Below, one piece after another: positions 30,074 to 46,374 of a stretch of DNA of 64,000 nt. The position numbers and the translations under genes are program-made. This DNA is from a virus. Every line of letters starts with the position of its first letter. Positions within the stretch are counted from its first letter, which is position 1. Location: IMG/VR virus record IMGVR_UViG_3300008448_012223. One strand, 5' to 3'. A model generated the notes under the pieces. It was not told where the DNA came from and ran no database searches. It saw only the letters and a list, made by a program, of their open reading frames with translations.

Positions 30074-30320
30074 TGAAAAATTGGGTTTGAAATCCCGCCC
30101 CTTAGCGATAGTGGAGGGCGACTTTACATAAATTAATAAGAAACAATTAAAACGCTAGAACAACGAATTAACTGAATCTTGCTAACAGCTATCTGTCCCA
30201 ATCGTTTCCAACTGGTATCGCTTACAGATAGCTGTTTTTCCATTAACATAACCAAGTCTCTACTTGCGTTGCCTAGATCAATTTAGGCAAGCCCTGTTGC
30301 TTTAGGGCGTGGCTAGTTAC
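30074..30320 (-). mobile_element. non-autonomous, internally deleted IsrB-element derivative (~247 bp)
   Basis: omegaRNA 5' end fused to the last ~35 codons of isrB and the right end; highly similar to 59310-59510 and 60615-60681. Confidence 0.85.
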
Positions 30321-33819: not shown

Positions 33820-34326
33820 CCTCCGCTGTCACGGATGGACCATCTCTTCACCATCTCTACTAGGTTTAGGTGTTCCACGTATGGTCTCTACACGGTAACA
33901 CGTCTATCAATGGGTAGTAGCCCTACTGACGTGTTACTCGCTCGGGATTGGGAGAGAGTCCTTTCCCCGAGTTAGTGGAATATTACCTTGCCGGTTTCCT
34001 AGCAAGCGAGCCAAATTTATCTCTCTTTCTATATAGACAGATACATGCATCATACTGATTTTTAAATGGATATAATCCCAAGAACCAGCAAACTCGTTTA
34101 AGTCCCTTCGACCACTACTAATAACATAACTTGGCTTTATCCAACGCCTTACCAATAAGGCTTAGAGTTAATCCAGACTAGGGAAGTATCTGGAAGTCTG
34201 TAGCAATTAGCAGCTCAATGGTCTATTCACCTCTTACGTCCTCAGAATTGGTTCTGGCAATCCTCGTCATGAAAGGGGCGAGGTTAGTGATGTCGATGTC
34301 TATATCTGTCTATGGACAGTTAGCTA
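33820..34326 (-). ncRNA. group I intron (507 nt) in polA motif A
   Basis: 5' exon ends in U and intron ends in G; splicing restores DFSS-QELR; IGS TTTGGCTCG (34015-34007) pairs with CGAGT|CAAG; P3 TTCCAC/GTGGAA, P4 CTCGGG/CCCGAG, P6a 10 bp, P7 GACCAT/ATGGTC, P9 TCCGT-GACA-GCGGA. Confidence 0.92.
34054..34291 (-). ncRNA. ORF-less IsrB-type omegaRNA (HEARO-like) inserted in the intron P1 loop
   Basis: Colinear similarity to 60470-60681: ATCACTAACC start, GACTTCC..ATACTTCCCTAGT..GGATTA.CTCTAAGC.TTATTGGTAA.GCGTTG, GAAGGGACTT; followed by ATGA. Confidence 0.85.
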
Positions 34327-34407
34327 ACTCGAGAAGTCTACGCTTACCCATGCATAGCCCGGTGGGGCCTGCAGAGCAAAGCGACTATTCATCTTTATTT
34401 TCGTCAT
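34327..34407 (-). CDS. polA: family A DNA polymerase, C-terminal part, exon 1
   Basis: MTKIKMNSRFALQAPPGYAWVSVDFSS matches the R..F.AP.G..lvsaD(F/Y)S pattern of motif A. Confidence 0.8.
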
Positions 34408-34537
34408 GTCTATATTGACTGAGGTCTATTACTCTAACCCTACCAGTATTAACATCATATAATAATGCCGTATCCCTCTCAGAGGGATAACGGTTGGTTA
34501 GTATACGCCGTAATCGTTTACTACTAATTGTCTTCAA
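34385..34537 (-). CDS. 50-aa ORF filling the gap between the two polA parts
   Basis: TTG start 9 nt after AGGAGG; open for 50 codons; overlaps both polA parts. Confidence 0.55.
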   Translation of the reverse strand: MKTISSKRLRRILTNRYPSERDTALLYDVNTGRVRVIDLSQYRHDENKDE

Positions 34538-35798
34538 ACAATCTATCCTCCTCTATATCTACTATTAGCTCAACATTACTAATCTGCTGTGCATTGAATT
34601 TATTAGTATCTCCACTACTAGAACTACTCATACGGCCTGTACTGGTGCCGATGGTCTGGTAACGGGCGTGGACATTACCTGTACGCGGGTTAATCAGGGC
34701 CGCCCAGTTAGTACTAACCATCTTGGTCAGTTTCTTATACCGCAGTAGATCTGATATAACCTGAATACCCAGGTCGCGTATACCCTCTTCACTAGTAGCG
34801 CCATCCTCGTCATCCTCGCTATCTAGTTCTCGCAGCACTGTTTCTAGTGTCTTCTGCTGCAGGTTATCTAGCTCAACGGGTAGGAGCTTCTGGATACGAC
34901 TCACTAGGGCAGTGGGGTTATTCAGTAGGGCTGTTATCTTATCAGGTACTACTAGAGTCACCTGAGGGGCCCCCGAGTTCCAATCGACTACCTGATCTAC
35001 GCTGAAGTCGAAGTGAGCACTCATGCGCAGCTTATAATTATCTAGCTCTGATTGAGCTGTACTCAGAAAGCTGCGCATGACATTCATGTTAATAGGCAAT
35101 CCATCCCATTCCATGCGCGCTATCTCCATAAAGGCGGCCTGGTCTATCTCTTCTACTTGAGGCATCTCATAGGTATAGAGTAGTTCATTACGTAGTAGAG
35201 CATAGGCCTCTAGCAGGAGGCTAGTGTAATTAGAATTACGAGGGGCCCCTACATCTAGAGCGGCGTACTGTAATTGAGCGGGTGTTAACTCACCTGACCA
35301 GTCACTACTAGCGAGTTCCTTATTCAGAGGAGTATCCAGTATATCGCGTACTAGACTACCATAAGAATAGCCTCTAGTACGGCCCGCCTTGAATCCAGTA
35401 GCAGCGCCTATCTGTTGAAATAGCACCATAGCGCAGTATAGATTATTAGGCCATACGCCCCACGTAGCTTGCGTTACTAGGGCTTCGAAGCGTGCGTTGA
35501 AGCAGACCTTCCTGACACTACTATCAAGCCATATGTCCCGTATCTCAGTGGGCCAGTCTAGGGCGCGGAGATCAACCACATACGGTATTGCATTACCAGG
35601 CCAGTTAATTTGTAGCAGGCGGGCTACTAACGTATGGGGATCTAGTGCACTAGCCTGGGGCCCCCACGTTTCTACATCTGCATAGGTTTCATAATCCATA
35701 GCGAGTAGGGGGCGGCCCCCTAGTTCTAATAGTAGTGCATCTAGCTCCTCTCGAGTAGTGATATACTCTAGGTCAATTAGATCAGTATTAACTCTCAT
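34524..35798 (-). CDS. polA: family A DNA polymerase, N-terminal part (3'-5' exonuclease plus thumb/palm start)
   Basis: MDYET (ExoI), FNARFE (ExoII), YAALDV (ExoIII), QTIGTSTGRMSS. Confidence 0.85.
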   Translation of the reverse strand: MRVNTDLIDLEYITTREELDALLLELGGRPLLAMDYETYADVETWGPQASALDPHTLVARLLQINWPGNAIPYVVDLRALDWPTEIRDIWLDSSVRKVCFNARFEALVTQATWGVWPNNLYCAMVLFQQIGAATGFKAGRTRGYSYGSLVRDILDTPLNKELASSDWSGELTPAQLQYAALDVGAPRNSNYTSLLLEAYALLRNELLYTYEMPQVEEIDQAAFMEIARMEWDGLPINMNVMRSFLSTAQSELDNYKLRMSAHFDFSVDQVVDWNSGAPQVTLVVPDKITALLNNPTALVSRIQKLLPVELDNLQQKTLETVLRELDSEDDEDGATSEEGIRDLGIQVISDLLRYKKLTKMVSTNWAALINPRTGNVHARYQTIGTSTGRMSSSSSGDTNKFNAQQISNVELIVDIEEDRLFEDN

Positions 35799-43389: not shown

Positions 43390-46374
43390 TTAACTAGCGC
43401 AGGAATGGCACTCATTCTTCTCAGTTACCTTATCCTGCCATATACTCCGCACGTAATATAATGTCTTGAGGCCCTCACGCCACGCCTGCAGATAGACATC
43501 ATTTAGATCCTTAGCAGTGATTACGGAGTCGAGGCCATAGGCGTGTTCATTGAAGTTGAATAACAACTCAGTGCTAAGACCAGTATCTATCCATTTCTGA
43601 ATAGTTGCTGCAGCAGAGACTACGACACTGGGATGAGTATGGCGGCTCTCCTGATAAAAGTGAAATGCCTCCTTGATATAGAGCGGGACTATGGTATTAA
43701 TACCAGCCCCATTCTTATCAATGGTAAGGCGAGAGAAGACAGGTAAGAAGGAGGCCGTGGTGCCCTGTACCAACGAGGTGCTGGAGTTAGGAGCAGTAGC
43801 CAGGATGTGAGAATTACGAATACCCGATACGATTATACGCTCCATGAGGGCGTACCATCTCTCGGGGTCGGCGCTATTATCGCTGACCCATTCCTTATCG
43901 CGACCACCCAGGATAAGGCCCTTACTCCACTCACTACCAGGGAATGCAGGGTAGGCCCCCCGCTCCTCTGCTAGTTCTACACTAGCCTGAGTAGTATAGA
44001 AGCAGATGTCTTCGAATAGTTTCTCTATGACATCGAGATCCTGATACTTAAGGTGTCTAATAGCTAACCAGTCAGCTAGTCCCATGACACCTACGCCTAT
44101 GGTACGATAGCGGTTCACATGAGCGCGGGCCTCAGGAGTAGGGCTAGTAGTGAGATCACATGCGGCATCTAATAAGCGAACAGCCATACGGCTAACATCA
44201 GCCATCTCATCGTCAACAATACGAGGTAATACTAACGATAGAAGTATACAGCAGTGTGAGTAGCCGCTATTAAATAAACTATATGACTCGACGCAATTGC
44301 CTGTAAGCACTCCATTGAACATGAGCAGGTTACGCTTAGGTTCGTGGGCGCAATACGTATTATCGTGACGACCAGTGAGCTCTACCTCCTTGATAGTTAT
44401 GTAATTAGTATTGTCATACTTAGGTTTAATAGCTATCCACTGAAGGCGATTAGTTCGTAGGCCTAGTTGGTATAACTGATATACTCCGTACCTATCAATT
44501 AATAAGCAGAACTTCTCCTGACGACGCCGAAGCCCTGCCTTATACCGGAGGAAAACCTCAGAGTCCACTCCAAGCGTCTGTAGCATGAGCCGCACTTGTA
44601 ATAGGAAGGGCTTACTGGTATGCGTTATTCTGAAGGTTTGGAAGCTATTATAAGTACCATCAGAATCAAGCAGCCTAGCCAACCACTCTAATCGGGTCTG
44701 AATAGTATAACCATTAATGGGAACAGTTAACTCATTAGGGAGGTCTACATCGCTATCAGAAGACACAAATGGCAGGTCGGACTTAATGAGCTTATCACCT
44801 ATATCGAGATCGCGGGCCTCGACAATATCTATCCCATTACGACGCTGTACGTGAAACTTATGGTAGTAGGTACAGTCAAGAGTTTCTCCATTACTGAAGT
44901 GGACTCGTAGGAGAGGTTGATTCTCCCCTGTCTGGCGTACCGTTACCTCACTCCACTCACTACCGTTCCAAGCGTTGACTACCTGCCCTGCTAGGGTAGC
45001 GATAGGTAGGTGGCCCCGGTCAGTCATAAGAAGTGTCTCAGGGGCTACGCATAGATTTACTCCACCGATGATACCCTCATGCTTATTAGGATTAAACGCA
45101 TTAATGCGGTCTTTAAAAGCCACGTAAGGAGTACCTGTCTCAAGTAGGAGCATCAGCATCTTCTTCCATATAGCCTTAGCGCTGACCTTCTTAACTACGT
45201 CGAGCGGAGGAGCGGAGGAGTTGATATAGGCCTCGATGACGTGATAGGCATCAGTAAATTCATCGCCGTACATATCGGCTAATTGATATCCAAATACATT
45301 CTTGATCTCAGTAGGGCACACTAGGTACCAGTCCTTATCTAGAATTACACGACGCATGAACTCATCAGAGATAATGAATTGCAGCAGGATATCACGAGCC
45401 TTCGTATGCTCACTACCAGCATCACCCCGCAGGTCCATGTACTCAAGGAGGTCAGCATGCCATACGTCTATACCTACGGTACAGGCTCCTGCGCGTACAC
45501 CACGTTGATTAGTAGCGACGATGGTAGCATTGATAATCTTAATCCAAGGGCATACACCACCACTGGCACCCTTCTTCTTACGAATGCGACTACCACGGGC
45601 CCGCACCTTACTAATGCGTACGCCCACTCCACCGCCATTAGCACTCATCGCTGCTAGCTGAGAGATATTATCGAAGATACTCTCGCGACTATCATCGATA
45701 TCGATAATATGACAACTACTGAGGCTACCATCGGCCTGACGCAGGTTACTCATAAGAGGAGTGGCCAGGCTGATCTTACCGAGGCTGAGTAGGTCATAGG
45801 TCTTATGAGCAAAGGTCATGCGCTCGTGGGCGGGCTCCAGCATACTGAGGAGTAGTGCCTGTGTTAGCCACATCTCCTGTAGTAACTCACCCTCTAGTAG
45901 ATAACGCGCTGTGAGTAGATCAGCGCCGCTTATATCAAAGCGCATATCGCGCTCTGGGTCTATCCAGGTGCCGGCTTCAGCAATGTCATCAGCACTATAC
46001 GTGTCTAAGAACTTCTTTATTAGGTCTCCTTCATAGAGGCCCTCAGACCTCAGGTACTCGAAGGCCACTGGATAATTACCATAGAGATAGCCGCGGCGGG
46101 CCTTAACCTTACGCCGCCAATCCCACATACGAAGACGACCACTGACCTTCAGCCAATCAGGATAATGCAAATCGGCTAATTCAGCTGCTGATCTAATCAG
46201 ACCATTCTGTATTGCTTCTGTAGTGGTATCATCATTGAAGCGACGACTAAGTCGCCGAGATAACTTATCGGGGTCTACATCTAGGCCCTCGCAGGCCCAG
46301 TTAATTACCTCGATAGCGCGATTGGCATCATAGGGGGTACGAGTACCATCTGTGTGTATAACGTTGATTTGCAT
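43390..46374 (-). CDS. nrdA: class Ia ribonucleotide reductase alpha subunit containing an intein
   Basis: SLATP, LSSC, NGGGVG, NL|C.E, TAPNSSTS. Confidence 0.92.
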   Translation of the reverse strand: MQINVIHTDGTRTPYDANRAIEVINWACEGLDVDPDKLSRRLSRRFNDDTTTEAIQNGLIRSAAELADLHYPDWLKVSGRLRMWDWRRKVKARRGYLYGNYPVAFEYLRSEGLYEGDLIKKFLDTYSADDIAEAGTWIDPERDMRFDISGADLLTARYLLEGELLQEMWLTQALLLSMLEPAHERMTFAHKTYDLLSLGKISLATPLMSNLRQADGSLSSCHIIDIDDSRESIFDNISQLAAMSANGGGVGVRISKVRARGSRIRKKKGASGGVCPWIKIINATIVATNQRGVRAGACTVGIDVWHADLLEYMDLRGDAGSEHTKARDILLQFIISDEFMRRVILDKDWYLVCPTEIKNVFGYQLADMYGDEFTDAYHVIEAYINSSAPPLDVVKKVSAKAIWKKMLMLLLETGTPYVAFKDRINAFNPNKHEGIIGGVNLCVAPETLLMTDRGHLPIATLAGQVVNAWNGSEWSEVTVRQTGENQPLLRVHFSNGETLDCTYYHKFHVQRRNGIDIVEARDLDIGDKLIKSDLPFVSSDSDVDLPNELTVPINGYTIQTRLEWLARLLDSDGTYNSFQTFRITHTSKPFLLQVRLMLQTLGVDSEVFLRYKAGLRRRQEKFCLLIDRYGVYQLYQLGLRTNRLQWIAIKPKYDNTNYITIKEVELTGRHDNTYCAHEPKRNLLMFNGVLTGNCVESYSLFNSGYSHCCILLSLVLPRIVDDEMADVSRMAVRLLDAACDLTTSPTPEARAHVNRYRTIGVGVMGLADWLAIRHLKYQDLDVIEKLFEDICFYTTQASVELAEERGAYPAFPGSEWSKGLILGGRDKEWVSDNSADPERWYALMERIIVSGIRNSHILATAPNSSTSLVQGTTASFLPVFSRLTIDKNGAGINTIVPLYIKEAFHFYQESRHTHPSVVVSAAATIQKWIDTGLSTELLFNFNEHAYGLDSVITAKDLNDVYLQAWREGLKTLYYVRSIWQDKVTEKNECHSCAS
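44296..45051 (-). mobile_element. intein (252 aa) at the RNR active-site NL/C junction, with a partial LAGLIDADG region
   Basis: Starts CVAPET, ends LTGN followed by C; block B TLDCTYYHKF; WLARLLDSDG. Confidence 0.9.

Follow-up and report, generated by a model that had tools for sequence, protein, structure and literature searches.

The polymerase gene of a Microcystis phage carries a group I intron that belongs with the phage polA introns and is at the decaying stage of the homing cycle; a stand-alone IsrB omegaRNA has recolonised it. We propose, at a probability of roughly 70%, that this omegaRNA is a transposon relic or passenger sheltered in the loop of the decaying intron. The intron lies within a 64,000-nt stretch of viral DNA, referred to here as the window.

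A group I intron in the split polA gene

The sequence of the window indicates that its source is a Ma-LMM01-like Microcystis phage, that is, a cyanobacterial virus, whose close relatives Ma-LMM01 and MaMV-DC have polA exons 96-99% identical to its own. The native polA of Ma-LMM01 is split into an exonuclease-containing gene (gp180) and a polymerase gene (gp178), and the intron is located in the homolog of the second. A split before motif A is also found in a phage whose polymerase is 47% identical, where the two genes variously overlap or lie up to about 290 nt apart, with a small ORF (window equivalent 34408-34523, minus strand). The bases upstream of the polymerase start codon (34404-34416, minus strand) vary among phages by a 3-nt indel and substitutions. 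The gene and its ribozyme are laid out as follows.

34524-35798, minus strand: N-terminal polA gene, 424 aa, with the 3'-5' exonuclease and the start of the polymerase domain (Pfam; Ma-LMM01 gp180)
34327-34407, minus strand: first exon of the polymerase gene (gp178 homolog); its 27 codons end in DFSS
33820-34326, minus strand: group I intron, 507 nt, in polA motif A, with U at the 5' splice site and a terminal G
34294-34319, minus strand: 5' arm of the L1 stem, which directly precedes the start codon in the endonuclease allele
34012-34053, minus strand: 3' arm of the L1 stem and linker, a C-terminal coding remnant of the lost LAGLIDADG gene
34007-34015, minus strand: internal guide sequence (IGS; P1 34011-34007, P10 34015-34012)
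33820-34006, minus strand: ribozyme core, from drawn helices and homolog comparison
Core helices, minus strand: P2 34006-33987; P3 33980-33975/33878-33873; P4 33971-33966/33946-33941; short P5; P6/P6a; P7 33888-33882/33842-33837; P8; P9 33835-33822
32938-33819, minus strand: exon 2 of the polymerase gene, 293 codons, first residues QELR

Excision of 34326..33820 joins DFSS|QELR and yields a 320-aa ORF that is identical to Ma-LMM01 gp178 at 317 of 321 positions. Precisely this 507-nt stretch is absent from nine cultured-phage records and eight metagenomic loci, and the intron that had been called from sequence alone is thus real. An in-frame stop directly follows exon 1 in the unspliced transcript, and these features suggest that the intron splices. 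If it does, splicing would hide the insertion in an essential gene, as had been suggested, since the insert lies wholly inside the intron.

The complete, compact group I core described in the sequence-only reading is borne out by the helices: P1, including its U.G pair, can be drawn together with P2-P9 and P10, the G-binding P7 is present, and P3 directly follows P7 in a core that is not of the IA2 type. Pairs in P2, P3 and P7 have changed on both sides relative to a homolog in a distant phage (L182), a 1015-nt intron at the same polA codon (DFSG|QELR) with the same IGS position. Against the Rfam family Intron_gpI the core scores E=6e-6 and 37 bits, short of the gathering threshold of 50. Position 34011 holds the G of the U.G pair; it lies 315 nt from the 5' splice site, in line with the earlier placement of the IGS at about 310 nt, and the hairpin that had been seen in the P1 loop (34313-34302 with 34033-34044) forms with pair probabilities of 0.87-1.0. 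The minimum-energy fold of the whole RNA carries no information (z=-1.7). As had also been noted, the 507-nt intron contains no nuclease ORF. No promoter or terminator was found above shuffle level.

Four alleles and a lost endonuclease gene

Four intron alleles occur at this polA site, of 972, 333 and 269 nt in addition to the 507-nt allele of the window. The longest (L173), found by searching with the broken ORF of the 333-nt allele, has an intact gene for a 259-aa, two-motif LAGLIDADG endonuclease in L1; the 333-nt allele (L004) keeps only a remnant of that gene, and the 269-nt allele (L128, L171) is empty. In L173, the ORF begins 30 nt into the intron, directly 3' of the 5' arm of the L1 stem, runs through the IGS and ends in P2, with its 3' coding region serving as the 3' arm of the stem. 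Aligned to this allele, the window has 709 nt of the endonuclease gene, from the start codon to an ATGA near its end, replaced by the insert and six extra bases. The omegaRNA occupies exactly the former place of the endonuclease gene. The earlier statement that the intron carries an omegaRNA instead of a homing endonuclease gene is therefore right physically and historically, but it fails functionally, as intronless polA holds no target for the guide.

Because the L1 stem closes the endonuclease ORF in L173, it predates the insert. The stem that sequesters the guide is thus the inherited stem that looped out the endonuclease and not a device evolved for the guide. The conflict between splicing and guide activity that had been suggested is not supported on the same grounds, and the stem overlaps neither the splice sites nor the core. 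An intron lacking the omegaRNA, which the sequence-only reading had proposed to look for, exists as the 269-nt allele, with ATGA correctly placed.

The L173 endonuclease (L173:890-1669) also has an N-terminal HTH-like part and has 55 homologs, at least two of which lie in polA motif-A introns of other phages. A distant homolog has the same layout and an endonuclease, and gene order points to one further such homolog; polA motif-A introns with a LAGLIDADG gene in L1 apparently form an undescribed intron family. All intron alleles were at the one polA site, with none in 17 Microcystis genomes, and pattern scans of viral contigs returned only one other intron record. Elsewhere in the window, the gene for the ribonucleotide reductase large subunit (43390-46374, minus strand) contains an intein with a LAGLIDADG domain that is absent in L128 (994 versus 742 aa). 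A free-standing HNH endonuclease gene (53355-53996, plus strand) is on the strand opposite to its neighbours, 19 kb from the intron and not linked to it, and about 20 dispersed, degenerate 40-100-nt repeats are found between 10000 and 17600, where there are few ORFs.

We propose that the intron belongs to a family of phage polA motif-A group I introns homing via a LAGLIDADG endonuclease in L1 and that this gene is being lost in the Microcystis phage population, with the 972-, 333- and 269-nt alleles as successive states. In one lineage, a protein-less, cyanobacterial omegaRNA element of the IsrB family would then have landed in L1. It is also possible, if doubtful, that the history ran differently with the same functional outcome: the 269-nt allele would be a deletion of the omegaRNA via the near-repeated junction heptamer, and the insert would have entered an allele that still had endonuclease sequence. 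The six apex bases of the 269-nt allele are the first six of the insert, and near-direct repeats flank the insert, both of which fit a deletion; yet a P7 variant and an upstream variant of the 269-nt allele recur in L004 and not in the window. The informative sites conflict, so recombination blurs the allele tree, and this too counts against the deletion.

The omegaRNA, its guide and its candidate partners

The insert (34291..34054, minus strand) is a 238-nt stand-alone IsrB-type omegaRNA followed directly by ATGA, and its parts are these.

34292-34311, minus strand: would-be 20-nt guide, wholly intronic, mostly paired in the L1 stem
34096-34291, minus strand: IsrB-type omegaRNA scaffold (HEARO-like)
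34054-34095, minus strand: terminal hairpin typical of protein-less stand-alone omegaRNA elements
34050-34053, minus strand: ATGA, which is the insertion target of ISC1/IsrB and the TAM and was also native to the former endonuclease ORF (L173 comparison; PMC4810608; PMC9581776)

Its identification as an omegaRNA of that length is supported by a match to the omegaRNA upstream of the phage's isrB (73% over 149 nt, E=1e-20) and by the empty allele, which is shorter by exactly 238 nt (507-238). It matches HEARO weakly and is 81% identical to the best cyanobacterial isrB copy. The scaffold keeps 57 of 60 family pairs (95%), or 43 of 46 when the consensus is built without the insert, and all three long-range or pseudoknot pairings are intact; relative to the omegaRNA of the phage's isrB, 17 pairs differ on both sides. 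The broken pairs are two in SL2 and the first of S1, which is paired in 45 of 45 other copies and unpaired only in the intron.

The same type of 3' hairpin occurs in several cyanobacterial genomes as well as in a prophage and in phage Mic1. In Mic1 (L100:1414-1711; MN013189), a cultured Microcystis phage, it belongs to a complete, unannotated stand-alone omegaRNA element with right end and ATGA. Between hairpin and ATGA, 10 of 10 free stand-alone copies have a transposon right end of 51-107 nt, whereas the intron copy has 1 nt. The insert thus adjoins ATGA as had been described, but it is unlike the other two elements of the phage in lacking that end. In Microcystis, insertion of ISC1 elements takes place 5' of ATGA, and the Y1 transposase recognises their 3' terminus (PMC4810608). 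The ATGA supports transposase-mediated entry, and we infer that the intron copy is now stranded. A near-identical donor was sought in 401 genomes across the phylum and 89 of the family and not found, the best match reaching 82%; pattern scans of viral contigs gave no other phage copy of this omega subfamily except in L012.

We propose that entry was most likely by Y1-transposase insertion 5' of ATGA, after which the right end would have been lost and the left junction rearranged; alternatively, the insert may have been captured through short homologies at both junctions. The left junction can be read as loss of one copy of a 5-nt repeat (flank and element start) together with a 6-nt tandem duplication. 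The insert would owe its persistence to splicing, which takes it out of an essential mRNA, and to the older L1 stem, which loops it out; it would be unable to excise or to move the intron, and its guide would no longer match a sampled target.

The sequence-only reading had the guide direct nicking and homing on omega-less intron alleles. The exact predicted target was found in no sampled allele, and neither intronless polA nor the endonuclease and remnant alleles contain a site with six or fewer mismatches. The 269-nt empty allele (L128/L171) matches the guide at 17 of 20 positions next to ATGA, the mismatches falling at TAM-proximal positions 1-3. Because the bases before ATGA in the empty allele also occur in L173 and L004, they are ancestral, and the mismatch stems from a change in the omega-bearing allele. 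Since the guide is intronic, there is nothing for it to target in intronless polA, and the omegaRNA therefore cannot replace the endonuclease in moving the intron. Matches of guide plus TAM elsewhere (20 viral, 7 Microcystis) were rejected as targets, being confined to the seed with 12-15 contiguous nt. The likeness of guide plus ATGA to the polymerase start region (34404-34416, 85 nt upstream) was likewise set aside, with only four seed matches that are probably due to chance.

The phage carries an intact isrB and further related elements.

59368-60465, minus strand: isrB (ISC1-1_MA-like), intact; it might act as a partner in trans, though nothing ties it specifically to the intron
60489-60681, minus strand: cognate omegaRNA of isrB, 73% identical to the intron copy, of a different subfamily
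30074-30320, minus strand: third element, an internally deleted isrB element with both ends kept, ending at ATGA

The encoded protein keeps PLMP, D62, E164 and H236/D239, as expected from the earlier report of intact RuvC residues, as well as the TAM-reading residues R343/Q346 of DtIsrB, and the gene is near-identical to host copies (the IsrB proteins of the hosts are 90-95% identical). The pairing of this isrB with the intron is not supported, since the gene has its own omegaRNA of another subfamily and also occurs in phages without the intron. Upstream of isrB (60681-61035, minus strand), the 5' end of the omegaRNA recurs in about seven partial copies that alternate with short spacers in a CRISPR-style array; an array of this kind is also found in MaMV-DC, inserted at another site. 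The element at 30074-30320 retains the last isrB codons, and its insertion point is the start codon of the following gene. An intronless relative has three isrB omegaRNA copies within 2.4 kb (L001:8031, 10040 and 10394), one inside another isrB.

It is conceivable, if unlikely, that the trimmed RNA, loaded on phage or host IsrB, nicks omega-less intron copies in co-infecting phages and is thereby copied in, in which case the insert would spread within the intron and not spread the intron itself. The intact scaffold, the well-placed ATGA and the 17/20 match to an existing empty allele all speak for activity and against a relic, and the frequency of the haplotype also counts against a relic. Activity is further favored by the availability of IsrB in phage and hosts; stand-alone omegaRNAs function in trans for IscB (PMC9581776), and an exactly matching allele might have been converted away. 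On the other hand, the three mismatches are TAM-proximal, and guide mismatches at positions 1-14 abolish IscB cleavage (PMC9640706); the exact target was never seen, most of the guide is paired in the stem with probability near 1, the omegaRNA lies outside the subfamily of the phage's isrB, and there is no sign of spread across backgrounds. Dead IscB binds in cells with little dependence on the seed (bioRxiv 2023.03.14.532601), a further point against a relic that concerns binding only; for IsrB, the literature searched contained no report on mismatch tolerance. The fuller proposal, that the endonuclease was traded for an immobilised guide RNA which, once splicing and trimming have freed it, guides IsrB to nick, in trans, omega-less introns in co-infecting phages, we regard as rather improbable. 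Were it true, the trade would amount to a drive made of RNA alone within an intron and, for the IsrB type, to a first step toward an IStron.

The population data agree with a single recent insertion within a successful lineage rather than with homing, although sampling by identical protein biases them toward one haplotype. All omega-bearing introns sampled (about 20 contigs) are identical, a single invariant haplotype whose flanks show 0-1 differences in up to 20 kb except for multi-kilobase recombinant blocks, whereas omega-less alleles sit in backgrounds about 3% divergent. The exon-2 product of the omega haplotype occurs in 63 contigs, and each other intron allele was seen in 1-2. Inheritance would have been vertical, with ordinary multi-kilobase recombination. 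Co-option of the RNA, either as an abundant excised intron that titrates host or phage IsrB as a decoy or as an insert that tunes polA splicing, would give the haplotype an advantage and would explain both its frequency and a scaffold retained although mobility and targeting were lost. We consider this distinctly improbable: a recent insertion accounts for the intactness equally well, intronless and omega-less phages are viable and common, and there is no variation from which selection could be measured.

Relation to homing introns, stand-alone elements and IStrons

Phage polA introns with homing endonucleases (SPO1, Bastille and Pf-WMP3, I-PfoP3I, PMC3428280; Bastillevirinae survey, PMC11878797) are introns of the same self-splicing type in a family-A polymerase gene, and they too loop out an endonuclease ORF whose loss yields ORF-less alleles. 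Unlike these, the intron described here has a compact, non-IA2 core and a two-motif LAGLIDADG ORF that passed through the IGS into P2, now replaced by the omegaRNA. A mobile (homing) intron encodes the nuclease that cuts the intronless allele; L173 carries an endonuclease gene, and the intron of the window carries none.

The insert shares its scaffold, and a guide taken from the 5' flank, with the stand-alone omegaRNAs (PATEs) of ISC1 (IsrB) elements such as ISC1-1_MA (PMC4810608; PMC9581776; bioRxiv 2023.03.14.532601). Like them it sits 5' of ATGA (34053-34050), and it ends in the hairpin of the Mic1 and cyanobacterial free copies. It departs from them in its intronic location, its altered first base, a left flank unlike the empty site, and the lack of a right end, so that it does not have both ends with subterminal hairpins.

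IStrons (CdISt1, BcISt1, CboIStron; PMC4227781; bioRxiv 2023.11.20.567912) likewise combine a group I intron with an IS200/IS605-derived guide RNA in one transcript; there too splicing hides the insertion, and ORF-less versions exist. In an IStron, the IS ends are the splice sites, and TnpB types have the omegaRNA over the 3' splice site (bioRxiv 2023.11.20.567912; PMC4227781), an overlap that makes the two functions mutually exclusive. The insert, by contrast, lies in L1, upstream of the IGS and core, with its ends 35 and 234 nt inside the splice sites; there is no TnpA or TnpB, the guide family is IsrB rather than TnpB, and the core is not IA2. Nor has a transposase inserted it at many unrelated sites. 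A looser usage that asks only for an IS component wholly inside the intron (PMC4227781) does describe the insert fragment. IStron membership was nevertheless rejected, given ends off the splice sites, an absent right end, a single polA site and no overlap with the 3' splice site, and the IStron-like composite proposed earlier is not supported, because such ends rule out IS-type mobilisation of either the intron or the insert.

A true IsrB IStron, or an RNA guide that takes over from the endonuclease and carries the entire intron into intronless polA, is thus very improbable and, on the sequences compared, already largely refuted. In its favor are the position of the insert in the endonuclease's place and the vague resemblance at the polymerase start. 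Yet the guide lies 15-35 nt inside the intron, the region around the intronless junction offers no site within six mismatches, and neither tnpA nor isrB is inside the intron.

An omegaRNA nested in a phage group I intron looks unreported: we found no account of such nesting or association for IsrB in the literature searched, the coverage of which is incomplete. The insert is a natural test of IsrB seed tolerance and of cross-loading by a non-cognate omegaRNA, both of which have been little measured. Even as a relic, it belongs to a snapshot of four intron states in one phage population: endonuclease, remnant, empty and OMEGA guide RNA. It indicates that an RNA-guided transposon can settle in the intron loop that a homing gene has left empty, which is plausibly a first step, though a stalled one, toward chimeras resembling IStrons.
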